This document shows positions 2,416 through 18,974 of a DNA stretch of 18,974 nt, piece by piece. A program made the translations under genes and the position numbers. Source of the DNA: a virus. Taxonomy: Duplodnaviria; Heunggongvirae; Uroviricota; Caudoviricetes. The DNA lies in IMG/VR virus record IMGVR_UViG_3300036876_000145, positions 83,489 to 102,462 of that record; one strand, 5' to 3'. The notes under the pieces are model-generated. The model was not told the DNA's origin, did not search any database, and worked only from the letters and a program-made list of their open reading frames with translations. Within the stretch, counting starts at the first letter, position 1. Every line of letters begins with the position of its first letter.

Positions 2416-2444
2416 TTGACAATAAGTCAAAGTTTTAGTAATAT
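2416..2444 (+). promoter_or_regulatory. near-consensus sigma70 promoter TTGACA-N17-TAATAT, with the -35 inside the palindrome TTGAC-N5-GTCAA
   Basis: TTGACA at 2416-2421, a 17-nt spacer, and TAATAT at 2439-2444. The inverted repeat TTGACaataaGTCAA spans 2416-2430. Confidence 0.5.
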
Positions 2445-2462
2445 CAGTATTAAGGTATAGAG

Positions 2463-2570
2463 ATGAATAAGATTCACACCAACTCGAACGCAGTCTGTAC
2501 GGAACACGGTACTGTCGCCGCTGCTGCGGCGGTAGGAGATACTGTGTCCTCGGATGGTTGGGACGGTTAA
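2463..2570 (+). CDS. 35-aa ORF (MNKIHTNSNAVCTEHGTVAAAAAVGDTVSSDGWDG) in a self-contained promoter-to-terminator unit; could instead be a small RNA
   Basis: AAGG lies 7 nt upstream of ATG 2463, and TAA is at 2568-2570. The 3' part is structured (2547-2553 pairs with 2591-2597; 2556-2560 pairs with 2577-2581). Confidence 0.3.
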   Translation: MNKIHTNSNAVCTEHGTVAAAAAVGDTVSSDGWDG

Positions 2571-2595
2571 ATAACTCAACCTAAAAGATTCCGAG

Positions 2596-2628
2596 GACGC
2601 CATCAAAAAATGGCGTCTTTTTTGTTTT
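2596..2628 (+). terminator. rho-independent terminator
   Basis: GACGCCAT (2596-2603) pairs with ATGGCGTC (2610-2617) and is followed by TTTTTTGTTTT. Confidence 0.75.
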
Positions 2629-2639
2629 GCGGTGAATGT

Positions 2640-2718
2640 ATTCCGATGGCGTGAGCGGCGAAACCACTTGCCCTACAAGCAAGTATCATCGGGGGTTCGA
2701 GTCCCTCTCGGAATACCA
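2640..2718 (+). tRNA. non-canonical tRNA-like gene; anticodon loop CCUACAA reads as Val-UAC with C33; poorly paired D arm; CCA encoded
   Basis: Acceptor ATTCCGA/TCGGAAT. T arm GGGGG-TTCGAGT-CCCTC, then A73 and CCA. Anticodon stem CTTGC/GCAAG. The D region TGGCGTGAGCGGCGAAACCA offers only a 3-bp TGG/CCA stem. The variable region is 7 nt. Confidence 0.5.
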
Positions 2719-2729
2719 AATTTTAATGT

Positions 2730-2804
2730 GTGGGTGTCGTCCAATGGGAGGACTTTCGGTTTGCACCCGGAGAATGCGAGTTCGAGTCTCGTCACTCTAC
2801 ACCA
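2730..2804 (+). tRNA. tRNA-Ala(UGC) with one bulged nucleotide in the 3' strand of the acceptor stem
   Basis: D arm GTCC-AATGGGA-GGAC. Anticodon arm TTCGG-TTTGCAC-CCGGA. T arm GCGAG-TTCGAGT-CTCGT. The acceptor GTGGGTG pairs with CA(C)TCTAC and keeps G3:U70, A73 and CCA if C2795 is bulged. Confidence 0.7.
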
Positions 2805-2810
2805 AATGTG

Positions 2811-2886
2811 CCGTCCGCGACGGTGATAGATACCAGAAAGCTCTTCGGAGCGCTGGAATGGGGATCAGCCCCTTAGTCATCGCGGC
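2811..2886 (+). ncRNA. tRNA-sized structured spacer made of three hairpins, one capped by C(UUCG)G; not a cloverleaf
   Basis: Hairpins are CCGTC-CGC-GACGG (2811-2823), CCAG..GCTC-TTCG-GAGC..CTGG (2833-2856) and GGGG-ATCAG-CCCC (2860-2872). An alternative end pairing is CCGCGA 2815-2820 with TCGCGG 2880-2885. Confidence 0.3.
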
Positions 2887-2896
2887 TAAATTTATA

Positions 2897-2970
2897 AGCG
2901 GATTAGCCAAGTGGTTAAAGGCATCTGCCTGCAAAGCAGACAAGCACGGGTTCGAATCCCGTATCCGCTT
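2897..2970 (+). tRNA. tRNA-Cys(GCA)
   Basis: Acceptor AGCGGAT/ATCCGCT. D arm GCCA..AGGC with an A13:A22 mismatch. Anticodon loop CTGCAAA (GCA at 2931-2933). T arm ACGGG-TTCGAAT-CCCGT. U73. Confidence 0.9.
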
Positions 2971-2979
2971 CCCAAATTT

Positions 2980-3056
2980 GGGGGTATAGTTCCAACTGGT
3001 AGAACAGCGGCTTGTCGCGCCGATGGTTGCGGGTTCGAATCCCGTTACCCCCGCCA
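2980..3056 (+). tRNA. tRNA-Asp(GUC), CCA encoded
   Basis: Acceptor GGGGGTA/TACCCCC. D arm GTTC-CAACTGGTA-GAAC. Anticodon loop TTGTCGC (GTC at 3014-3016). T arm GCGGG-TTCGAAT-CCCGT. G73 and CCA. Confidence 0.92.
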
Positions 3057-3060
3057 GTTT

Positions 3061-3138
3061 GGTGTGTTGGAGGAGTCTGGTCTTCCTCGCTTCCCTGTCA
3101 CGGAAGATATCACACGGGTTCAAATCCCGTACACACCG
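3061..3138 (+). tRNA. second tRNA-Asp(GUC), with an 11-nt D loop and 7-nt variable region; no encoded CCA
   Basis: Acceptor GGTGTGT/ACACACC. D arm GAGG..CCTC. Anticodon arm CTTCC-CTGTCAC-GGAAG (GTC at 3097-3099). T arm ACGGG-TTCAAAT-CCCGT. G73. Confidence 0.8.
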
Positions 3139-3147
3139 CTTTCGTGA

Positions 3148-3179
3148 CTTCCTGAGTATTAAGTAGAGTACTCAGGAAG
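3148..3179 (+). promoter_or_regulatory. 11-bp hairpin sequestering the GIY-YIG ribosome-binding site
   Basis: CTTCCTGAGTA (3148-3158) pairs perfectly with TACTCAGGAAG (3169-3179). The 3' arm contains the AGGAAG SD, 4 nt before ATG 3184. Confidence 0.55.
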
Positions 3180-3183
3180 GTTC

Positions 3184-3834
3184 ATGATGAAATACACAGT
3201 CTACAAAACTGTGAATCTGGTCAACGGCAAGTTCTACATCGGTGTCCACAAGACGGACAATCCGAATGATGACTACCTTGGTTCTGGGAAGTTCATCAAA
3301 CGAGCCGTTGCGAAGTACGGAGAGCAGAATTTTCGCAAGGAAATTTTGGCTGTCTTTGAAATCCAGAGAGAAGCTTTCGATCTCGAAAAGAAACTCGTGG
3401 TTGAAGCGAAAGTTGATCCACTGTGTTACAACCTGAAAGCTGGCGGTGAAGGTGGGTTTGACTGGATCAATCGTAAGGGATTGAATAACTCGAACGAGAA
3501 CGGCGTGAAAGGAAATCGGGTTACAATTGGAAAAATAAAAACTGACCCAAAGGTAAAGAAGCGATTTACTGACAGGATCAATCGAGTTAGACAGTATCGT
3601 ACTCAAGACTACAAAGCTCGAATTCCTTCGATGTTACAAAAGTGGACAGGACAGCATCATACCGCCGAGACAAAGGCTAGACTTAGCGAAACGCATAAAG
3701 GTAAGAGCAACGGACGCTTTGGAAAACAGTGGATGTATCATCTCGAATCGCAGAGATCAAAGCCTGTCTCACCGGACGAGATCAATAGCCACATTGAACA
3801 AGGTTGGTTGATTGGTCGCCGGATGAAATTTTAG
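3184..3834 (+). CDS. free-standing GIY-YIG homing endonuclease (Seg/I-TevI-like)
   Basis: The N-terminus KYTVYKTVNLVNGKFYIGVHKT...YLGSGK...R...E..E is the classical GIY-YIG motif set. The gene sits between tRNA genes. ATG 3187 is an alternative start. The stop is TAG. Confidence 0.9.
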   Translation: MMKYTVYKTVNLVNGKFYIGVHKTDNPNDDYLGSGKFIKRAVAKYGEQNFRKEILAVFEIQREAFDLEKKLVVEAKVDPLCYNLKAGGEGGFDWINRKGLNNSNENGVKGNRVTIGKIKTDPKVKKRFTDRINRVRQYRTQDYKARIPSMLQKWTGQHHTAETKARLSETHKGKSNGRFGKQWMYHLESQRSKPVSPDEINSHIEQGWLIGRRMKF

Positions 3835-3841
3835 GAGAGAC

Positions 3842-4054
3842 GTGAAGATTCTCTACGATGAACAGCGGCATCTGATCACGGTGCCGTACTCGAAAGAGAA
3901 TCTACATGAAGCAGCGCGGCAGTTGGGTATTAAGCGTTGCTGGTTTCACAAAGACCACTACGACGTTCCTAAGAGAATGATGTCTCGGATGTCGGAGACG
4001 GTAGCAGAAAAAGTTTCGCCGCGTGAAGTTTTGAAGATCGTGCGCGGCAAGTAA
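3842..4054 (+). CDS. DUF4031-family small protein (70 aa)
   Basis: The pattern NLHEAARQLGIKRCWFHKDHYDVP matches my recollection of the DUF4031 signature (ELH.FA..G..R.WF....HYDVP). GTG start with a GGAG SD at 3834-3837. Confidence 0.75.
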   Translation: MKILYDEQRHLITVPYSKENLHEAARQLGIKRCWFHKDHYDVPKRMMSRMSETVAEKVSPREVLKIVRGK

Positions 4055-4058
4055 GTTT

Positions 4059-4135
4059 GGATGGATAGCCAAGTAGGAAAGGCGCTCCCCTGCAAAGGGA
4101 GTCATGCGGGGGTTCAATTCCCTCTCCATCCTCCA
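4059..4135 (+). tRNA. second tRNA-Cys(GCA), CCA encoded
   Basis: Acceptor GGATGGA/TCCATCC. D arm GCCA..AGGC (A13:A22). Anticodon arm CTCCC-CTGCAAA-GGGAG (GCA at 4092-4094). T arm GGGGG-TTCAATT-CCCTC. U73 and CCA. Confidence 0.88.
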
Positions 4136-4137
4136 AA

Positions 4138-4519
4138 TGTACCAGTTCGGGACAACCGCTGGCAGGAAGTTTCTGCGGGAGGGAAAGTTCGGGGCTTCAT
4201 AGAGTACCGTGCGGGGTAACTCCCCGGCGACGGCGCAAGCCGTTGACAATTAGAGCTACAGAGACGAGTCACAGAAGGTGTGCTTGGAAGCGCGTAAGAT
4301 TCACGTCGGTAGTGTTGATGTGAAATGCCCGACCAAGTCCCCTGATGTGGGTGAAACGAGCAATCTTCACGGGAAGCAAGTGCAAATAGGCTGACAGGAA
4401 CTACTCGTTCCGTTATGAATCAGCGGGTAGCATGCTTGAGCGTTGGAGTAATTCAACGCCTAGACGAATGGTTGTCGCCGCGCAAGCGGAACAGAACCCC
4501 GGCTAATAGGACTGGTACA
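4138..4519 (+). ncRNA. rnpB: RNase P RNA, bacterial type A (M1-like), apparently complete
   Basis: P1 4138-4146/4511-4519. P2 4151-4157/4470-4476. P3 4162-4176. CR-I-like GGGAGGGAAAGTTCGGGGCTTCATAGAG at 4177-4204. P8 4212-4226. P9 ACGGC-GCAA-GCCGT at 4230-4243. AAGCAAGTGCAAATAGG at 4374-4390. GGGTAGCATGCTTGAG at 4425-4440. GCCTAGACGAATGG at 4458-4471. AACAGAACCCCGGCTAATAGG at 4490-4510. These align with the recalled E. coli M1 RNA sequence. Confidence 0.9.
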
Positions 4520-4541
4520 AGTTTATGAGTTTTTGAACTAT

Positions 4542-4568
4542 GAGCGACCTATATTAGAGAGGTCGCTC
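4542..4568 (+). promoter_or_regulatory. 8-bp hairpin occluding the SD and GTG start of the HNH gene
   Basis: GAGCGACC (4542-4549) pairs with GGTCGCTC (4561-4568). Wobble and AU pairs extend the stem into GTG 4569-4571. The GAGAGG SD lies at the loop/stem junction. Confidence 0.5.
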
Positions 4569-5006
4569 GTGACAAGTCAAAAAGAAGTTCAAAGACAATT
4601 AGGAATGAGTCGAGGAACCGCCAACTACAGATTGGCGCGTCTTTTACTCTTCAAATACATGCAGCAAGCTGGGGCGGACAACTGTTTTCGCTGCGGTCTA
4701 AAGCTTGAAACGGTTGAAGATTTTAGTATTGAGCATAAAAAACCGTGGTTGTACGCATCCCCAGATTTATATTGGGATTTGGAAAATATTGCTTTTTCGC
4801 ATCGCGCATGTAATTCGGGCGCAGCTAGACAGATCAATAAGACCAAAATGAGTCTTAGATCAGTAGGACCGGAAGGAACAAGTTGGTGTACGGAACATAA
4901 ACAGTTTCTTTCAGTCGATGAATTTCAAAAAAATTCCGCTATTTGGAACGGCTTACAAAGGCAATGCAAAGAATGCCGACAAAAGCGAAATAAAAAGCGG
5001 GCTTAG
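4569..5006 (+). CDS. free-standing HNH homing endonuclease
   Basis: CFRCG...SIEHKKPW...NIAFSHRACN is an HNH motif, and a C-terminal CKEC adds a zinc-finger pair. The ORF is open from TTG 4533, but GTG 4569 has a GAGG SD 6 nt upstream. The TAG stop (5004-5006) lies inside tRNA-Gly. Confidence 0.88.
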   Translation: MTSQKEVQRQLGMSRGTANYRLARLLLFKYMQQAGADNCFRCGLKLETVEDFSIEHKKPWLYASPDLYWDLENIAFSHRACNSGAARQINKTKMSLRSVGPEGTSWCTEHKQFLSVDEFQKNSAIWNGLQRQCKECRQKRNKKRA

Positions 5007-5073
5007 CTCACGCTGGTAGAGCGCTGGTCTTCCAAACCGGAGGTAACGGGATCGTCGCCCGTAGTCCGCTCCA
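4997..5073 (+). tRNA. tRNA-Gly(UCC) with an unusual T loop ATCGTCG (A54/U58 swap); CCA encoded
   Basis: Acceptor GCGGGCT/AGTCCGC. D arm GCTC-ACGCTGGTA-GAGC. Anticodon arm CTGGT-CTTCCAA-ACCGG (TCC at 5031-5033). T stem ACGGG/CCCGT. U73 and CCA. The 5' end overlaps the HNH CDS by 10 nt. Confidence 0.85.
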
Positions 5074-5084
5074 AGTTTAGATAT

Positions 5085-5160
5085 GGCGCACTCTGCTAAC
5101 GGCTAGGCAACCACGTTCTCAGCGTGTGAAATGTGGGTTCAAATCCCGCGTGCGCTACCA
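5085..5160 (+). tRNA. tRNA-Glu(CUC), CCA encoded
   Basis: Acceptor GGCGCAC/GTGCGCT (G1:U72). D arm TGCT-AACGGCTA-GGCA. Anticodon loop TTCTCAG (CTC at 5118-5120). T arm GTGGG-TTCAAAT-CCCGC. A73 and CCA. Confidence 0.85.
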
Positions 5161-5167
5161 GATTTTG

Positions 5168-5222
5168 GCTGACCATGTTCGGCAAGGTCAGCGGTTGGGG
5201 GACATGGCTCAGTACAACCGCT
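5168..5222 (+). other. structured spacer in a tRNA-sized slot: two overlapping hairpins, no cloverleaf
   Basis: GCTGACC (5168-5174) pairs with GGTCAGC (5186-5192). AGCGGTTG (5190-5197) pairs with CAACCGCT (5215-5222). The loop of the second hairpin contains TGGCTCAGT, which resembles a D loop. Confidence 0.25.
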
Positions 5223-5231
5223 GATAACCGT

Positions 5232-5307
5232 GGGGCTATGGCGCAGTTGGGAGCGCGTAATCATGGCATGATTAAGGCCGTCGGTTCGAACCCGACTAGC
5301 TCCACCA
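5232..5307 (+). tRNA. tRNA-Ala(GGC), CCA encoded
   Basis: Acceptor GGGGCTA/TAGCTCC with G3:U70. D arm GCGC-AGTTGGGA-GCGC. Anticodon loop ATGGCAT (GGC at 5265-5267). T arm GTCGG-TTCGAAC-CCGAC. A73 and CCA. Confidence 0.93.
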
Positions 5308-5313
5308 GATTTT

Positions 5314-5388
5314 GCGGAAGTAGTTCAGCGGTAGAATATTTCCTTGCCAAGGAAGGGGTCGCGGGTTCAAATCCCGCCTTCCGCTCCA
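5314..5388 (+). tRNA. tRNA-Gly(GCC), CCA encoded
   Basis: Acceptor GCGGAAG/CTTCCGC. Anticodon loop TTGCCAA (GCC at 5346-5348). T arm GCGGG-TTCAAAT-CCCGC. U73 and CCA. Confidence 0.92.
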
Positions 5389-5399
5389 AGTTTAGAAGT

Positions 5400-5461
5400 T
5401 CATGGATGCCTAGATGTCGGTGGCTAACCGAAAGGTCGCGGGTTCAATGTCCGTTCCATGT
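5400..5461 (+). ncRNA. 62-nt truncated tRNA-like RNA with normal acceptor and T arms but no normal D-plus-anticodon region
   Basis: Acceptor CATGGA/TCCATG. T arm GCGGG-TTCAATG-TCCGT. The interior is only 31 nt and folds in one of two ways. Fold 1 is GCC-11 nt-GGC plus ACC-GAAA-GGT. Fold 2 is TCGGT-GGCTA-ACCGA with no D arm. It abuts the next tRNA with no spacer. Confidence 0.4.
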
Positions 5462-5537
5462 GGGGCTATAGCGCAGTTGGGAGCGCGTCTCGTTCGCAAC
5501 GAGAAGGTCGTGAGTTCGAATCTCACTAGCTCCACCA
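5462..5537 (+). tRNA. tRNA-Ala(CGC), CCA encoded
   Basis: Acceptor and D arm are nearly identical to Ala(GGC), with G3:U70. Anticodon loop TTCGCAA (CGC at 5495-5497). T arm GTGAG-TTCGAAT-CTCAC. A73 and CCA. Confidence 0.93.
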
Positions 5538-5544
5538 AGTTATT

Positions 5545-5617
5545 GCGGGTGTAGTTCAATGGTAGAATATTCGGTTCCCAACCGAAAGATTTGTCGGTTC
5601 GAGTCCGACCATCCGCT
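5545..5617 (+). tRNA. tRNA-Gly(CCC)
   Basis: Acceptor GCGGGTG/CATCCGC. D arm GTTC-AATGGTA-GAAT. Anticodon loop TTCCCAA (CCC at 5577-5579). T arm GTCGG-TTCGAGT-CCGAC. U73. CCA is not fully encoded. Confidence 0.88.
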
Positions 5618-5624
5618 CCGTTTT

Positions 5625-5768
5625 ATGAGAGAGTGTCCAAAGTGCGGTAAGAAAGAACAATGGGAAATCGGTTGGATTTCTACTACCAATGAATGGCGCT
5701 GGCATTGTCTGTCTTGTGATATTCGTTTTAATGATGATGGCGTAATTTACACACCAGAAAAAGTTTAG
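5625..5768 (+). CDS. 47-aa zinc-ribbon protein (MRECPKCGKKEQWEIGWISTTNEWRWHCLSCDIRFNDDGVIYTPEKV)
   Basis: A CPKC...CLSC pair of Cys knuckles. The track ORF 5559-5768 begins inside tRNA-Gly, so ATG 5625 is the first start outside it. No clear SD. Confidence 0.55.
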   Translation: MRECPKCGKKEQWEIGWISTTNEWRWHCLSCDIRFNDDGVIYTPEKV

Positions 5769-5787
5769 GGCCGTGGGACTGCATTGG

Positions 5788-5815
5788 GGTGGTTCGAATC
5801 TCACTAGCTCCACCA
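5788..5815 (+). pseudogene. orphan 3' fragment of tRNA-Ala (T loop, acceptor 3' strand and CCA)
   Basis: 5792-5819 is a perfect 28-nt copy of 5514-5541, the 3' end of tRNA-Ala(CGC) plus its spacer. No matching 5' half or cloverleaf lies upstream. Confidence 0.6.
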
Positions 5816-5822
5816 AGTTTAC

Positions 5823-5926
5823 GTAGGCTTCCGAGGGATACCTCGGTGACAGTTGTTCTGAGGTCATCTCTTCATGAGGGGCTGAACAGGGAACGGCAGC
5901 GTGGGGAAACCCACAAGCCTACACCA
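5823..5926 (+). ncRNA. 104-nt tRNA-shaped RNA of unrecognised family: 8-bp acceptor-like stem plus A-CCA, SelC-like 6-bp/4-nt D arm, long anticodon-like arm with loop CUUCAUG, and a GAAA-capped T-arm substitute
   Basis: GTAGGCTT (5823-5830) pairs with AAGCCTAC (5915-5922), then A and CCA. D arm CCGAGG-GATA-CCTCGG at 5831-5846. TGTTC 5854-5858 pairs with GAACA 5884-5888, stacked on an imperfect stem 5862-5869/5877-5883 with loop 5870-5876. GTGGG-GAAA-CCCAC at 5901-5914. The flanking spacers match those of real tRNAs in the array. Confidence 0.5.
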
Positions 5927-5929
5927 TTT

Positions 5930-6005
5930 GCGCTGTTAGATTAGCGGTAAAATCGTCACCATGACAAGGTGAAAATCGGGGGTTCGATTCCCTCACGGCG
6001 CACCA
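5930..6005 (+). tRNA. tRNA-Val(GAC), CCA encoded
   Basis: Acceptor GCGCTGT/ACGGCGC. D arm GATT-AGCGGTAA-AATC. Anticodon loop ATGACAA (GAC at 5963-5965). T arm GGGGG-TTCGATT-CCCTC. A73 and CCA. Confidence 0.92.
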
Positions 6006-6017
6006 GTTTTTAAATAT

Positions 6018-6095
6018 GGCGTTGTCTTCTAAATGGTCTAGGAAAACTGACTTTCAATCAGTGGAATGCCGGTTCAACTCCGGTCAACGCTACCA
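6018..6095 (+). tRNA. tRNA-Glu(UUC), CCA encoded
   Basis: Acceptor GGCGTTG/CAACGCT (G1:U72). Anticodon arm ACTGA-CTTTCAA-TCAGT (TTC at 6053-6055). T arm GCCGG-TTCAACT-CCGGT. A73 and CCA. Confidence 0.85.
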
Positions 6096-6102
6096 GAATT
6101 GA

Positions 6103-6177
6103 GAGGGAGTAGCTCAGCGGTAGAGCAGAATATTGCCAATATTCAGGTCGCGGGTTCAACTCCCGTCTCCCTCTCCA
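6103..6177 (+). tRNA. second tRNA-Gly(GCC), CCA encoded
   Basis: Acceptor GAGGGAG/CTCCCTC. D arm GCTC-AGCGGTA-GAGC. Anticodon loop TTGCCAA (GCC at 6135-6137). T arm GCGGG-TTCAACT-CCCGT. U73 and CCA. Confidence 0.92.
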
Positions 6178-6226
6178 ACATTTATGCGAATCTATTCAAA
6201 AGTTTATTTTCGCTTTATGGTGTGTT

Positions 6227-6382
6227 ATGAGAAAACTAAAGAGACTAAGCAAGGTCAAACTCGTGAAGGAAATGTCCAGGGAGAGGGTGCCAGTCCCCGC
6301 GACCCGCAAGATTGAAAATAAGAAAAAGAAATTTTTGCGTTACTTAGAAACACATTGGCAGGAAGATGAATTGGGGGTATAG
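6227..6382 (+). CDS. 51-aa highly basic ORF (MRKLKRLSKVKLVKEMSRERVPVPATRKIENKKKKFLRYLETHWQEDELGV), hypothetical
   Basis: Own translation; below the track cutoff. The stop TAG (6380-6382) lies inside the next tRNA-Ala. No clear SD. A 43-codon alternative frame starting at ATG 6184 looks less protein-like. Confidence 0.3.
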   Translation: MRKLKRLSKVKLVKEMSRERVPVPATRKIENKKKKFLRYLETHWQEDELGV

Positions 6383-6448
6383 CTCAGCTGGGAGAGCGCA
6401 TCGTTTGCAACGATGAGGTCGTCGGTTCGATCCCGTCTACCTCCACCA
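6373..6448 (+). tRNA. tRNA-Ala(UGC), CCA encoded
   Basis: Acceptor GGGGGTA/TACCTCC with G3:U70. D arm GCTC-AGCTGGGA-GAGC. Anticodon loop TTTGCAA (TGC at 6406-6408). T arm GTCGG-TTCGATC-CCGTC with one U:U mismatch. A73 and CCA. Confidence 0.9.
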
Positions 6449-7073: not shown

Positions 7074-7766
7074 ATGCCAAAAATAGTTTTTATTTCAGAT
7101 ACTCATGGGTTACACGGTCAGATGCAGGTGCCCGAAGGAGATATTTTAGTTCATGCTGGAGATATGACTAATGTAGGGCGTATAAATGAAGTTGCTGCCT
7201 TGGGCGTATGGCTCCGTGAAATGGAAAAACGTTTTAAATTTATCGTGATCGTCGCGGGTAATCACGATTGGCTTTTTCAGAAAAATAGAGCCTTGGCTGA
7301 AAGCCTGATAAATCAAGGTACAATGGGAGAAGCTACGGGTAAAATCATCTATTTACAAGATAGTGGAGTTACAATTGATGGCTTAAAAATACATGGAAGT
7401 CCTCAAACTCCTTGGTTTTTTGATTGGGCCTTTAATGTACGCCGAGGAGAACTTAAGCCCTATTGGGATAAGATCCCTGAAGGTCTGGACATATTAATTA
7501 CTCACGGTCCTCCCAGTGGTATACTGGATCAAGCAGACCCTCATTTAGGCAGTGAACATGTAGGCTGTGAAGAACTTATGGAAGCGGTGGAGCGCACCAA
7601 ACCAAAAATCCATGTATTCGGACATATACATGGCGGGTATGGTAAAATGGAACATGTGAATACCACATTTATCAATGCTTCAATTTGCGATGAACGGTAC
7701 AAACCGATTAACGCCCCTTGGGTTATTGATATGGAGCCCCGTGATACACATGGCGAAGAAAAATAA
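7074..7766 (+). CDS. calcineurin-like metallophosphoesterase
   Basis: The motif series ISDTHG, HAGDMTN, VAGNHD, ITHGPP and VFGHIHG. Confidence 0.92.
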   Translation: MPKIVFISDTHGLHGQMQVPEGDILVHAGDMTNVGRINEVAALGVWLREMEKRFKFIVIVAGNHDWLFQKNRALAESLINQGTMGEATGKIIYLQDSGVTIDGLKIHGSPQTPWFFDWAFNVRRGELKPYWDKIPEGLDILITHGPPSGILDQADPHLGSEHVGCEELMEAVERTKPKIHVFGHIHGGYGKMEHVNTTFINASICDERYKPINAPWVIDMEPRDTHGEEK

Positions 7767-15300: not shown

Positions 15301-16226
15301 TTAAACAGTTCAAAGTTCCTGTACAACTAGAGTCAGTAACATTTGCTACTTTACCATCATCCCCAGCGAATGGCATGGAAGTATATTGTTCTGATTGTAC
15401 TTTTGGATCAAACCCCTGTACAGGTAGTGGCACAGGATCTTTTGCATATCGAGTTAATGGCGCGTGGGTTTGTAGCGATTCGAGTGGGTCCGGTGGAGTA
15501 AACGCCACTAATTCACCATCACAATATGCTGTAACTACTTGGGTAAACAGCACTACTATTGAAGGCATTGCGCCATCTTCTACAAGTGGGTATCCTTTAT
15601 TATCTAATGGTTCATCTGCGTATGCTTCTTTTGGGCAACTCTCAGTCGGAGCAATTAGTGCCACGGGCACACCGTCTTCCACCACTTATTTGAGGGGAGA
15701 TGGTAGCTGGGCTACTGTATCTGGTAGTGGGACAGTTACTTCTGTAGCGATGACCGTACCAGCCTGGTTATCCGTGAGCGGGTCTCCTATAACCGGCACT
15801 GGTACGCTTGCCATCACTTCAGCGGGGAGTTTGACCCAAAACTGGGTCTTAGCTACTCCTAATGGCAGCAGCGGTGTATTAGCTCCTCGTGCCTTGGTAG
15901 CGGCGGACATTCCAACTTTAGGAGTAAGTACCGTTAGTTTTTCAGCAACGCCAATTTTCAACGCTACTGGTTATAGCGGATTCAAAATAACTCTGACCGG
16001 TAATGTTACCAGCTCCACATTCACAAATGGGACGGCAGGAAGTCTTTACACTTTTGAGATCACGCAGGACGGAACAGGTGGTCGGACATTTGTCTGGCCC
16101 GCTAATTTTAAAGGCGGCGCAAGTGTGACAGATCAGGCCGCAGGATCCAACGAGACAATAGCACAGTTATTTTATTTTGACGGCAGCAATGCACTTGCTG
16201 TTGGTCCAGGAATGGTGACCCCATAA
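12357..16226 (+). CDS. large tail fibre / tailspike-like protein, 1289 aa
   Basis: The N-terminus [15 protein letters not shown] is typical of fibres. The C-terminal module [30 protein letters not shown]...[25 protein letters not shown] is shared with the upstream gene. AAGGAAA SD. Confidence 0.92.
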
Positions 16227-18974
16227 TGTCAATTCGCATTTACTTTCTCGCTTTAATTATTGCACTAACATCTTTGGCTGGTGCGCAAAATATTACCGGT
16301 AACAGTTTGACACTCTCGCCTACTTTGACCGTAGGTACACTTCCATCAGCAGCAACCAATAAGGGGCGCACGTTTTCTATCAGTGACGGATTAAATTCTA
16401 CCGACTGTACTGTTGGCGGAGGAACTAACCATGTATGGTGCTGGTCAAATGGAACTATCTACGCAGTGCCGTTTGGGTCGGCAGCAGGGGGCGTCACTTC
16501 CATTAATACCGTAGCCGGGGCGTTTACATTCAGCGGACCTGGGGTAACTTGTACAAGCACGGCTTGCACATTTTCCGGTACAGGAGTATCTTCTGTTTCG
16601 AACAGCGATGGAACTCTGACGATATCTCCCAACACAGGAGCAGTCGCAGTTTCGCTTGCTTTAAGTCATGCTAACACATGGACAAATCAGACGATTGACG
16701 GGGTGACCCCAACCACTTTTGGCTTCGTCGATCCCACGTCTAGTATTCAGACGCAGTTGAATGCCAAGGCTAACTCCAGCGTGACTACTCTTTCTTCGTT
16801 GATTGCGGCTGCTGGGGGTACGTTTGGGACGTGTGCGTTTGTGAATACTTGTGGTTCGGGAGGAACGTATAGCGCGGTTACTTCTCCGATTACGGCATCT
16901 AGCAGCACGCTCCAGTTTTCCGCGTCTCTGCTGAACTACGGTGGCAACGGAAATGGGACTTCAGACAACTCCACGGCCATGACTTCAGCGTGCGCCGCGA
17001 ACTCAGAAGTCTGGTTGCCTGCTGGGGCGTATGCGTTCACATCGAACTATGCCGTGTCGTGCGGGCTTCACTTCGGCGCTGGGGCAACGCTTGTAGCCCC
17101 GACTGGAGTAACGGTTACAGTCAATGGCAAGATCGACGCTCCCACTGTGCCAATATTTACTGTAGCTGGAACCGGGAAGTTTCTTATCGGTCCAGGAACT
17201 CCTGTCGATTACGCGGAGTGGTTTGGAGCGAAGGGCGATAACTCAACCGACGATACAATTCCTATCACATCCTGCGCCAACAATTTTACCAAATCAGGGT
17301 TGTGCCAGCTTCTTGGGAAGTCCTATAAAACAACAAACGTCATCATTCTTAGCACCAGCTATACAGGGCTGATAGGAGTAGATTCGGGGCAGACACAAGG
17401 GCCACAGCCCACTGGTTCGGGATACTCCCAGATCAATAACAATAGCGCTACATCGGACATCATCGACATAAGCGGGAGTGGGATTTTGCCTTACGGTGTA
17501 ACGGTGAAAAACCTTACCTTGGCCAAATCCGTTGCAGCCACAAACGCAGGTGCGAATGGGCTATATCTGGGAACTGGGTTCTGGCATTTTGTTGATAACA
17601 TCAATATTTGGGACGCGCCCAATGGAGTGACTGTCGGTGCCTCTGCTACCGTGATAGTGACGAACGTCAACGTCAACTGGTCCTCTCTCTGTTGCTCAGT
17701 GCCCGTCGTAGGGTTCAACTTGAACGGACCTTCGAATGTCTTCTCTAATATCTTCGCAGAGAGGGAAGGTTCCAGTGCGAGTGCCACCGGTTTTGCAATG
17801 GCAGCGGGAGGTACCGGACTGAGCGACGTATGGGTGAATAACGCTCAGGCTGATTTCGTCGGGACAGGGTTCTTGATCGACGTAACTGCGTGTGTGGCCG
17901 CTGATCCTAGCAACGAATGTGCAACGGACATTCACATTACCAATCCTATTATCAATGTGAGCAATACAGGGTTTAGTTTTGTGAACTTGAACTCGGCCAC
18001 TGGTCCCCAAGGGCCGTCAGTCGATATCGTCGGGGGTTCGTTCCTGGAAAGCTCCGGTAACGCGTTTACCTTCACTAACTCCACCACAGGGTACAACATC
18101 GAGCACTTTAACAGTCAGGCAGGTGGTGTTAACACTTTCATCAATCGGACCATGCCGTCTGCGTTCTTCTCCATACCAGTATGTAGCGCGAGCTATGAAG
18201 GGTCGTATGAATCGTTTAATGATTCCGCGACGAATACACAAGGAGCAACGATCACGGGCAGCGGAACGAATCATGTGCTCGGGTACTGCAACGGAACGAA
18301 CTGGGTAGTAGCCTCGGGGAGCGGCAGTGGGAGCAGCGGACTATCTGGCATGACAGCTACACAGATCCCGATTGCTGCCTCATCCTCGACCGTAACTAGT
18401 TCCGTACCAGCACCCACAGGCACAATTGTAGGGACAACCGATACCCAAACTCTCACGAATAAGACATTGGACGGTGTATCCCCAACAACATTTGGATATG
18501 TTGACCCTACTTCCAGTATCCAGACGCAGTTGAACGCCAAGCAAGGGACGCTCACAGGCACCGGGTTGGCTCGCAACACCGGAGCATCCTCGGAACTGAG
18601 CGGCGACTGCGCCACCAGCGGATCAAACGCTATCGTCTGTACGAAGACGAACGGGACGGCTTTCGGCACTGGAGCTACGGCTACCATCGCCAACTACGCC
18701 CTGCTGACCGGAGCGACCTTCAGTGGTGCGATCTCCGCCGCCGGGATCACGAACTCATCCGTATCCAGCGCCGGTTGTGCGACGTTCAGTTCTGGTGGAG
18801 TTCTGACCAGCACAGGAACGGCTTGCGGTAGCGGATCTGGTGGCGATACGATCACATCACCCAACAGCACGCTTTCCGTGGGTGGAACTTCTGCGGCAAC
18901 AACGCTCGATCTCAACCTTGGCCACGCGAACACCTGGACGGCGACTCAGACTTTTCCGAATGGGTCGATCACGT
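16226..18974 (+). CDS. tailspike/depolymerase-like protein with pectate-lyase-type (right-handed beta-helix) motifs; 3' end beyond the window (at least 916 codons)
   Basis: Not in the ORF track because it has no stop in the window. I checked every TAA, TAG and TGA from 16226 to 18974 and none is in this frame. The ATG overlaps the upstream TAA (TAATG). Motifs include [18 protein letters not shown], a tailspike N-cap-like motif, and a repeated DGV(T/S)PTTFG(F/Y)[14 protein letters not shown]. Confidence 0.88.

Follow-up and report, generated by a model that had tools for sequence, protein, structure and literature searches.

A phage tRNA array limited to G-first codons and cysteine, with an internal RNase P RNA and a putative attenuator leader

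The tRNA array and its RNase P RNA

The sequence analysed here, referred to as the window, is a stretch of 18 974 nt from the viral record IMGVR_UViG_3300036876_000145 (positions 83 489 to 102 462). Its plus strand carries, at 2640-6448, an array of tRNA genes that read only codons starting with G (GNN codons) and cysteine codons. ARAGORN found 16 tRNA genes, in exact agreement with the genes and anticodons listed in a preliminary description of this DNA, and all 16 were above the gathering score of the Rfam tRNA model, 15 by default and tRNA-Glu(CUC) (43.1 bits) with relaxed filters. As that description had also stated, all 14 of the non-Cys tRNAs have a C at position 36 (C36), the remaining two being tRNA-Cys(GCA), and only Val-CAC is missing. 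Hence, 11 of the 12 possible GNN anticodons that do not start with A34 are present, and the chance of 11 of 12 distinct anticodons falling in the GNN row is approximately 1.4e-8 (hand arithmetic, assuming about 45 equiprobable anticodons). The label 'UAC-like' given to the first tRNA was apt, as its anticodon loop, CCUACAA, has C33. Three features lay outside the preliminary description, namely an RNase P RNA within the array, a leader with a terminator (2416-2632) and a degenerate tRNA-like remnant. The features are listed in Table 1.

Table 1. Features of the window, and features of related contigs that are referred to in the text
Feature	Location	Strand	Details
Predicted sigma-70-type promoter	2416-2444	+	TTGACA, 17 nt, TAATAT; tool scan 10/12 matches
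Leader ORF, 35 codons	2463-2570	+	MNKIHTNSNAVCTEHGTVAAAAAVGDTVSSDGWDG; ATG 2463, TAA 2568-2570; 18 GNN codons and 1 Cys codon (TGT)
Hairpin in leader ORF	2516-2531	+	CGCCGC-UGCU-GCGGCG; tip of segment 1:2 structure
Predicted antiterminator, 5' strand	2544-2554	+	GUGUCCUCGGA; coding (Val-Ser-Ser-Asp); pairs with 2590-2600 in nascent transcript
Predicted antiterminator, 3' strand	2590-2600	+	UCCGAGGACGC; overlaps terminator 5' arm (2596-2600)
Predicted intrinsic terminator	2593-2632	+	GACGCCAU-caaaaa-AUGGCGUC and U tract; tool scan (2593-2620)
tRNA-Val(UAC)	2640-2718	+	C33 in window lineage, loop 2672-2678; ARAGORN, Rfam
tRNA-Ala(UGC), short variant	2730-2800	+	Bulged U between 68 and 69, G3:U70, then ACCA
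tRNA-Cys(GCA) no. 1	2896-2974	+	ARAGORN; Rfam 70.8 bits
tRNA-Asp(GUC) no. 1	2980-3056	+	ARAGORN, Rfam
tRNA-Asp(GUC) no. 2	3061-3139	+	Long D arm, CCA not encoded; L022 orthologue 85 % identical
GIY-YIG/NUMOD3 homing-endonuclease-like ORF	3184-3834	+	Pfam; lineage-specific insertion, absent from minimal lineage E arrays
DUF4031 protein, 70 aa	3842-4054	+	93 % identical to lineage C counterpart
tRNA-Cys(GCA) no. 2	4059-4135	+	Ends 4 nt before RNase P RNA
RNase P RNA, bacterial class A	4139-4522	+	RF00010 169.1 bits (curated threshold 100 bits), model positions 1-367 of 367
HNH endonuclease ORF	4533-5006	+	Pfam; inserted between RNase P RNA and tRNA-Gly(UCC)
tRNA-Gly(UCC)	4997-5073	+	Atypical T loop AUCGUCG; ARAGORN, Rfam
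tRNA-Glu(CUC)	5085-5160	+	G1-U72, A73; Rfam 43.1 bits
tRNA-Ala(GGC)	5232-5307	+	ARAGORN, Rfam
tRNA-Gly(GCC) no. 1	5314-5388	+	ARAGORN, Rfam
tRNA-like element, probably a remnant	~5400-5462		No D arm; permissive ARAGORN, Ser(GCU)
tRNA-Ala(CGC)	5462-5537	+	ARAGORN, Rfam
tRNA-Gly(CCC)	5545-5619	+	CCA not encoded; ARAGORN, Rfam
ORF with two CxxC motifs, 47 aa	5625-5768		MRECPKCGKK...HCLSCD...
Copy of tRNA-Ala(CGC) tail	5790-5816		Exact copy of last ~28 nt
tRNA-Val(GAC)	5930-6005	+	ARAGORN, Rfam
tRNA-Glu(UUC)	6018-6095	+	G1-U72, A73; ARAGORN, Rfam
tRNA-Gly(GCC) no. 2	6103-6177	+	ARAGORN, Rfam
tRNA-Ala(UGC), canonical	6373-6448	+	Last array gene; L022 orthologue 87 % identical
Metallophosphoesterase gene	7074-7766		Follows array in all relatives
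tRNA-Glu(UUC), C33	L236 11489-11563		
tRNA-Glu(CUC), C33	L236 13176-13251		
Truncated synthetase core	L022 8329-9033; L128 2294-3013; L238 11910-12656		Class II
Sigma-70-family gene	L022 4109-4735; L028 4754-5398; L234 4206-4919; L236 7763-8392		0.3-1 kb upstream of leader promoter

ORF, open reading frame. L022, L028, L128, L234, L236 and L238 are related contigs.

Protein genes flank the array on both sides, and seven near-identical metagenome contigs contain the same 16 genes, which upholds the earlier view that the composition of the array is not an artefact of the window edge. Relatives were recovered using three anchors, namely the metallophosphoesterase gene just downstream, the DUF4031 gene inside the array and a DNA pattern derived from the leader. 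These yielded nine lineages beyond that of the window (lineage A), ten in all, with proteins that are 52-65 % identical to those of the window and tRNA orthologues that are 70-87 % identical between lineages. The ten lineages together include 151 tRNA genes, 133 of them for GNN codons, 18 for Cys and none for any other codon (one Glu-UUC, in L128, was entered from separate scans). All 12 GNN anticodons are present in every array that lies wholly within its contig, with the exception of the window array, which has lost Val-CAC. The gene order is largely kept, with Val-UAC, Ala-UGC, Asp, Cys, the RNase P RNA and Gly-UCC followed by the remaining Ala, Val, Glu and Gly genes. The smallest arrays, those of lineage E, consist of 14 tRNA genes that cover the 12 GNN anticodons plus one Cys, and contain no inserted ORFs. 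At the level of the array, restriction of the tRNA set to the GNN row plus Cys is virtually certain. An unrelated huge-phage array that also includes a DUF4031 gene (L024), used as a control, is mixed (Leu, Trp, Met, Tyr and others), and visual inspection of the approximately 400 nt ahead of its first tRNA revealed no comparable leader.

In the preliminary description, the array was thought to have grown by local duplication and anticodon change, based on Ala(GGC) and Ala(CGC). The acceptor and D stems of these two are indeed identical, and the differences in the anticodon and T stems are fully compensated. However, recent duplication with anticodon switching was rejected as the source of the restricted set, as ten lineages whose proteins have diverged to 52-65 % identity share these anticodons in an almost unchanged order. 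Moreover, the acceptor features of the Ala, Gly, Asp, Val and Cys tRNAs are consistent with the assigned amino acid under Escherichia coli identity rules. Within the Ala and Gly families, duplication remains a plausible, though ancient, source of the additional genes.

Several of the tRNAs are unusual. A short (70-71 nt) Ala-UGC variant is found beside the canonical Ala-UGC in the window and in L022, L027, L028, L128 and L234. Its acceptor stem covaries (GUGGGUG, GGGUCGG, GGGCCAG), while the bulged U, G3:U70 and the ACCA end are constant in the six lineages. All tRNA-Glu genes of the family encode a G1-U72 wobble, A73 is present in almost all of them, and some share the T loop AUCGUCG of the window Gly-UCC. 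In three family tRNAs the near-universal U33 is replaced by C33, and their orthologues in other lineages retain U33. In three lineages, C, G and K, the array also includes a truncated class II aminoacyl-tRNA synthetase core of 234-248 aa that lacks an anticodon-binding domain. The best solved relatives of the one in L022 are glycyl-tRNA synthetases (E = 7e-8). The window array has no counterpart of this gene.

Directly after the second tRNA-Cys, the window array contains an RNA that matches the full length of the bacterial class A RNase P model. The catalytic core is complete (CR-I, P4, CR-V, P15 with GGU, and P18). However, the model positions for P13 and P14 are deleted, and the complete specificity domain of class A (P12, P13 and P14) is not present. 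P12 carries a lineage-specific expansion in the window, and six of the eight aligned lineages have only a minimal P12 hairpin. From these features, we read the phage RNA as a reduced variant of class A rather than as a non-member. Orthologues were found in all ten lineages, seven with RF00010 scores of 164-208 bits over the full model and three using blastn. The version in lineage E is 318 nt long. When eight orthologues were aligned, 44 of the 81 predicted pairs, including pairs in P4, showed compensatory changes, indicating that the RNA is maintained as a structure. In five of the eight, the P4 strand is GAAGUUCGGG instead of GAAAGUCCGGG, and the changes are compensated.

The RNase P RNA starts 4-10 nt after a tRNA in every lineage (Cys in nine, Asp in one), and where no ORF has been inserted (lineages C, D, E, F and G) its 3' end is 5-10 nt before tRNA-Gly(UCC). 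With tRNAs only 4-10 nt away on both sides, ordinary tRNA end-processing would release the ribozyme, which is presumably active together with the host RnpA protein; no rnpA-like gene was seen in the flanks read. A blastn search for ribozyme-like sequences found no match among 50 697 deposited phage records, and no report of a phage RNase P RNA was found in the searchable literature, the coverage of which is incomplete. The full-model match, CR-I, CR-V/P4, the P15 GGU, P18 and the covarying helices are shared with M1 RNA and other members of class A, whereas location in a phage, within a putative tRNA operon, together with the missing P13/P14 and the usually short P12, sets the phage RNA apart. 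Jakobid mitochondrial genomes encode rnpB (PMC3590771). The arrangement of a non-tRNA RNA directly flanked by tRNAs resembles the tRNA-punctuated processing in organelles, as does the presence of rnpB in the small genome itself, but here the transcript would be that of a phage operon and processing is deduced from the 4-10 nt spacings.

A number of minor elements lie between the tRNA genes of the window. The tRNA-like element in the 73 nt spacer between Gly-GCC and Ala-CGC was not accepted as a 17th tRNA, as it was found only with permissive ARAGORN settings and was not reported by Rfam at E <= 1. It is probably a decayed gene copy or remnant. Downstream of the short ORF with its two CxxC motifs, the end of tRNA-Ala(CGC) is repeated exactly, and together these look like the footprint of a small mobile insertion. 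The spacers at 2801-2895, 5161-5231 and 5820-5929 appear hairpin-rich by eye, and are far shorter in the minimal array of lineage E.

The leader region

A predicted sigma-70-type promoter, strong and close to the consensus, lies upstream of the array. In relatives it has the form TTGACA...TGnGAATAT, with an extended -10, and lineages C, E, H, I, J and K all have the TTGACA at this position. Downstream of this promoter is a predicted intrinsic terminator, and the first tRNA starts approximately 10 nt after its U tract. Terminator hairpins (-12 to -21 kcal/mol) with U tracts are present in all lineages, and their stems covary (CCAU:AUGG, CUC:GAG, AGCC:GGUU, AACC:GGUU and CCG:CGG). A tool scan of the plus strand revealed no other convincing promoter or terminator inside the array. 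As the terminator is located between the only good promoter and the first tRNA, expression from that promoter would require read-through.

A short ORF of 35 codons lies between the promoter and the terminator. A Shine-Dalgarno (SD)-like AAGG/AGGA is located 7-10 nt upstream of its start codon. In eleven distinct leaders (Table 2), the SD, start codon, frame and stop codon are all kept and insertions or deletions are in frame.

Table 2. Predicted leader peptides
Source	Peptide
Lineage A (window)	MNKIHTNSNAVCTEHGTVAAAAAVGDTVSSDGWDG
Lineage C	MNSNFTNFETQFGAVAGVVVVCEGTVAAEAAAGDTMSLGGIRA
Lineage E	MNLDHANPDSAALKGRGVVCTDTVAAGAAVEGSVSLGGGLEG
L127/L152 (eleventh leader)	identical to lineage E
Lineage F	MKHNLQIGHINATAVVVCEGTVAAEAAAGDTMSFGGSIG
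Lineage G	MNFNLTNATAVATTGGVVCAGEAGTVAAGAAVEDTMSSENDFD
Lineage H	MNFHNSNSDVMGTVGGAVAVVCANERGTVAADAAAGDTMSSEGWGA
L201	MNLLNSNSTAVAVAAAAAAVVCSDTVAAGAAEEGTMSSEGTQA
Lineage I	MNNTYANTNVSAATVAVVCERGTVAACAAAGDTMSSEIRVG
Lineage J	MSFLKTNSAAVTAQGGRVAVCAGTVAAEAAANEGDTMSLGGFGE
Lineage K	MNFLNANSTADAAQNGREVVCVGTVAAEAAAANEGDTVSLGGIWD

The codon content of the leader ORF matches the array. For seven leaders, the fraction of GNN and Cys codons is 0.54-0.62 per leader, compared to 0.29 +/- 0.10 in a background of 301 small ORFs, and the best 20-codon windows contain 15-19 such codons. In each of the seven, the GNN and Cys positions encode exactly Ala, Cys, Asp, Glu, Gly and Val. Fourteen aligned codon columns are GNN in all seven leaders, while the amino acid varies in seven of these 14. 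All 11 leaders retain a TGT codon, and in lineage I the loop of the hairpin within the ORF supplies a second Cys codon (TGC). The stem of this hairpin is invariant in eight leaders, whereas the codon in its loop is GCT, GAA, GGC, GGA, GAC or TGC, always GNN or Cys. As GNN is kept while the amino acid varies, it is the codon class rather than the residue that is conserved, and Cys is the only class that joins GNN. Judged from the sequences, this match between leader and array is the most economical explanation for the presence of Cys in an array that otherwise serves only GNN codons.

The leader also includes two competing helices, the terminator and a predicted antiterminator. The 5' strand of the antiterminator is part of the ORF, and its spacing from the stop codon is constant. 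In the window, the antiterminator duplex is predicted at -21.4 kcal/mol and the terminator at -11.7 kcal/mol, and only one of 200 shuffled sequences reached the antiterminator value. In seven lineages, the corresponding values are -18 to -32 and -12 to -19 kcal/mol, with 0-6 of 200 shuffles reaching that of the antiterminator, which takes up 5-10 nt of the terminator 5' arm. Antiterminators of -25 to -27 kcal/mol were found in three further lineages. The helix is anchored on an invariant GUCC...GGAC, and ten pairs are standard in nearly all sequences. Despite the coding 5' strand, four pairs switch types (CCUCGG:CCGAGG, CCCUUGG:CCAAGGG, CCUUCGG:CCGAGGG). In the alignment, 97.8 % of antiterminator cells are paired, compared to 31-51 % for slid partners. 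Four pairs (15 cells) are changed on both sides, and the covariation score was reached by none of 500 shuffles, with the two strands joined by an artificial linker for this count.

Over its full length, the window leader folds with unusual stability (z = -3.6). In the predicted minimum free energy (MFE) fold, segments 1 and 2 are paired, the antiterminator strand is sequestered and the terminator is formed, which in this model corresponds to a classical four-segment attenuator in its default-off state. Conversely, the nascent transcript, up to the terminator loop, is predicted to fold into the antiterminator instead.

The features described above could also arise if the small ORF were not a sensor, with a phage or host antitermination factor or a leaky terminator controlling expression and the GNN richness a by-product of a structured leader or a functional peptide. 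The strong structure of the leader, the conserved stem CGCCGC/GCGGCG, which in frame necessarily reads as Ala codons, and the presence of a sigma-factor-like gene just upstream in several lineages would all suit such an arrangement. However, G at the first position is kept while the rest of the codon and the amino acid vary, and this conservation extends to the unpaired hairpin loop and to the upstream run, which is variable in length. Furthermore, Cys is the sole non-GNN class that is conserved or substituted in the control run, as in the array, leader insertions and deletions are in frame with start, SD and stop kept in eleven leaders, and the antiterminator 5' strand is inside the ORF at a fixed distance from its stop codon. 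We therefore consider a leader without a sensing role decidedly unlikely.

Proposed control of the array and the G-first restriction

It is likely that some form of attenuation controls the array. More specifically, the region from 2416 to 6448 is, with somewhat less confidence, probably a single self-regulated operon that is turned on by slow decoding of GNN and Cys codons. When these codons are decoded fast, a ribosome translating the leader would cover the antiterminator strand up to the stop codon, the terminator would form and the operon would be off. When decoders of GNN and Cys codons are scarce, the ribosome would stall in the GNN/Cys run, allowing the antiterminator to form and RNA polymerase to read through. 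Read-through would then replace the whole complement of GNN and Cys tRNAs and provide extra RNase P RNA for their maturation. The outcome would be a feedback loop in which the decoders and the enzyme that matures them are made when, and only when, GNN and Cys codons are read slowly.

A number of points weigh against this proposal. We infer leader translation, the start of transcription and read-through from sequence. The leader is G+C-rich and structured, and constraint on the RNA structure in frame could yield part of the GNN bias, while a conserved TVAAxAA motif could point to a function of the peptide itself. There are only roughly three independent types of antiterminator, and the covariation thus represents few evolutionary events. 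Pairing of segments 1 and 2 is clear in the MFE folds of lineages A and E but weaker in C. The 5' strand of the window antiterminator ends 12-16 nt before the stop codon, a distance that a terminating ribosome would cover only marginally, so that timing would depend on kinetic coupling. DUF4031 does not adjoin the array in lineage E and in a phage of 332 kb, and is not part of a core module. Further tRNA operons may be present elsewhere in these genomes of 330-460 kb. Finally, the mechanism accounts for the match in composition between leader and array, but not for the choice of the G-first row.

The proposed arrangement shares several features with the trpL, hisL, leuL, pheL, thrL and ilvL attenuators, namely a promoter-proximal short ORF rich in control codons, an intrinsic terminator, an antiterminator 5' strand within the ORF and, in the predicted folds of lineages A and E, an upstream segment able to sequester it. 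Among these, the thrL and ilvL leaders sense more than one amino acid. However, in the phage leaders the control codons form a class (G first, plus Cys) that encodes six amino acids, with the residue free to drift, and the element is phage-encoded and precedes cognate tRNA genes and a ribozyme gene rather than genes for biosynthetic enzymes. As the genes that would be regulated are tRNA genes, the signal that can be corrected is the supply of tRNA and not that of an amino acid. No report of an attenuator ahead of a tRNA operon was found in the literature searched. T-box riboswitches also set terminator read-through according to tRNA status via an antiterminator, but T-boxes bind uncharged tRNA directly and regulate genes for aminoacyl-tRNA synthetases and amino acid metabolism, whereas here sensing would go through translation of the leader and the output would be tRNA. 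Rfam scans of the window gave no T-box hit.

Why phages carry tRNAs is a question that is about 50 years old, and the usual answers are codon compensation, decay of host tRNAs and evasion of anticodon nucleases. The set described here is unusually clean, a whole row plus Cys, and a specific cause is needed to account for its retention in lineages whose proteins are now only 52-65 % identical. Matching of tRNA supply to demand, with the array boosting the most-used codons, particularly those of the fibre genes, or offsetting a mismatch in G+C content between phage and host, is very improbable. It is true that GNN is the largest first-base class in the phage codons (32 % overall, 32-33 % across gene sets) and that Gly is the most frequent amino acid (9.1 %). 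However, codons starting with A are equally frequent (31 % overall, 30-33 %), and Thr and Ser (8.6 % each), Leu (7.5 %), Ile (6.1 %) and Asn (5.9 %), which are as frequent as Ala and Val, have no phage tRNA, yet Cys, at 1.5 % of residues, has one or two. C34 isoacceptors, which read only G-ending codons, have been retained even though the G+C content at third codon positions is 0.38. The preliminary description was therefore correct in stating that codon-usage compensation does not predict this set. Its suggestion that the tRNAs serve fibre genes rich in Gly, Ala and Val is not borne out, as the GNN share does not set fibre genes (33 %) apart from early genes (32 %), and the fibres are equally rich in Thr, Ser and Asn. 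Codon-usage explanations were thus rejected on the phage's own codon counts.

A quite possible explanation, if one short of probable, is that the array is one of several tRNA operons and that the remaining codon rows have their tRNA genes at other sites in these huge genomes, in which case the restriction would reflect genome organisation. The genomes of the relatives are 332-463 kb. Huge phages encode up to 67 tRNAs, with the number increasing with genome length (PMC7162821), and the sequence read around any array covered at most 34 kb of 463 kb. Nonetheless, no other tRNA was found in any of the flanks of the ten lineages, which extend up to 12 kb upstream and 22 kb downstream, and these include 34 kb (292 020-326 011) of the 463 kb genome and approximately 30 kb of the 332 kb genome. 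In addition, two specific scans with leader patterns returned this module alone.

If the sensor responds to slow decoding, the complete set under its control fits a loss of host decoders during infection, brought about by host defence or by the phage. One such scenario is counter-defence, in which the host or a defence system inactivates C36 tRNAs and tRNA-Cys and the phage supplies resistant copies, with the attenuator as the sensor. We regard this as rather unlikely, though by no means negligible. To our knowledge, no nuclease or toxin has a specificity for C36 tRNAs plus tRNA-Cys, which counts against it, and the tRNAs compared were those of the phages. Moreover, the conserved oddities, G1-U72 in tRNA-Glu and the bulged tRNA-Ala, are in acceptor stems and not in anticodon loops. 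On the other hand, the replacement is complete, including C34 isoacceptors, and does not resemble a top-up for rare codons, the putative operon is apparently induced by slow decoding, and the sporadic C33 loops in the window Val-UAC and both Glu tRNAs of L236 may be a weak hint. According to three papers, phage tRNAs can escape anticodon nucleases, retrons and Septu, and nuclease-evading tRNA genes are amplified by homing endonucleases located within tRNA clusters (PMC10264068, PMC11555353, PMC13096335).

A broader speculation, and on balance an unlikely one, is that these huge phages take over a whole row of the code. Host C36 tRNAs and tRNA-Cys would be lost, either to host defence or through the phage's own action, and the sensor would switch on an orthogonal set together with the ribozyme. 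In that case, these would be the first known tRNA genes controlled by attenuation, the first known phage RNase P RNA and the first known decoding module specific for a first base. Other codon rows might be organised likewise elsewhere in the genome.

Each part of the locus is of a known kind, be it leader-peptide attenuators, phage tRNA arrays or class A RNase P RNA. As in the arrays of T4, T5, mycobacteriophages, vibriophages and huge phages, the tRNA genes are tightly packed on one strand in a phage context, with GIY-YIG and HNH genes interspersed, and several of the tRNAs are non-canonical. However, known arrays mix codon rows, as in the L024 example, whereas here every GNN anticodon is represented with Cys as the only addition (151 of 151 genes), and an RNase P RNA lies inside the array. 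As far as could be found, an attenuator that controls tRNA genes and has control codons defined by class, an RNase P RNA carried by phages, and a conserved tRNA set limited to one first-base row are all new. The codon composition of the apparent control element reveals what the phage monitors, and makes the question directly testable. Confirmation of the mechanism would widen the scope of leader-peptide attenuation from amino acid biosynthesis to tRNA supply. RNase P RNA would join the translation-related genes carried by phages. The locus may also provide engineering parts, namely a sensor of decoding speed, a reduced class A ribozyme of approximately 320 nt and tRNAs with unusual acceptor stems.

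The phage family and neighbouring genes

The module belongs to a family of huge phages. The flanks of the array are phage-like, with genes for an N6/N4 DNA methylase, a metallophosphoesterase, an HhH protein and very large fibre-like proteins, and the array itself includes GIY-YIG and HNH endonuclease genes. No nucleotide match to the window was found among the 50 697 deposited phage records. However, the window sequence was found again in more than 100 metagenome assemblies, in contigs of up to 95-108 kb, with the same 16 tRNAs every time. Two relatives, of 463 033 bp (IMGVR_UViG_3300033405_000001) and 332 300 bp (IMGVR_UViG_3300033405_000002), are listed as viral genomes in IMG/VR. Others are 436-448 kb, among them Ga0326728_10000058 (436 kb) and Ga0683288_0000021 (448 kb), and ERZ27254067:k141_314296 is a further relative. 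A contig of 894 233 bp (L236, Ga0374055_0000025) includes the same locus as L237 (436 173 bp) and is about twice 447 kb (L238 is 447 784 bp). A two-copy concatemer assembly is the probable explanation, rather than a phage genome of nearly 0.9 Mb.

Not all markers were useful in the search for relatives. The methyltransferase, SNF2 helicase and fibre proteins of the window led to unrelated phages or gave no match, and 80 IMG/VR loci with a related RNR gene had no such array, a tRNA of any kind being present in only one of the 80. A first, loose pattern used on metagenomes matched at least 119 loci, with the module in six among the matches listed. A tighter leader pattern gave no match in 185 579 bacterial and archaeal genomes, and hence no clue to a prophage or host.

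The metallophosphoesterase gene of the window is syntenic with a gene that follows the array in all relatives, often after a gene for a WGR-domain protein. For its closest homologues (~65 % identity), the two cases checked, of 332 and 894 kb, were huge-phage-like contigs and not bacteria. In several relatives, a sigma-70-family gene is located upstream of the leader promoter, where the window lineage has the DNA methylase. The end of the window (16226-18974) falls within a fibre-like gene of 1380 aa, at which most assemblies break, and the ORFs listed on the minus strand at 17491-18933 sit inside this gene and are probably spurious.

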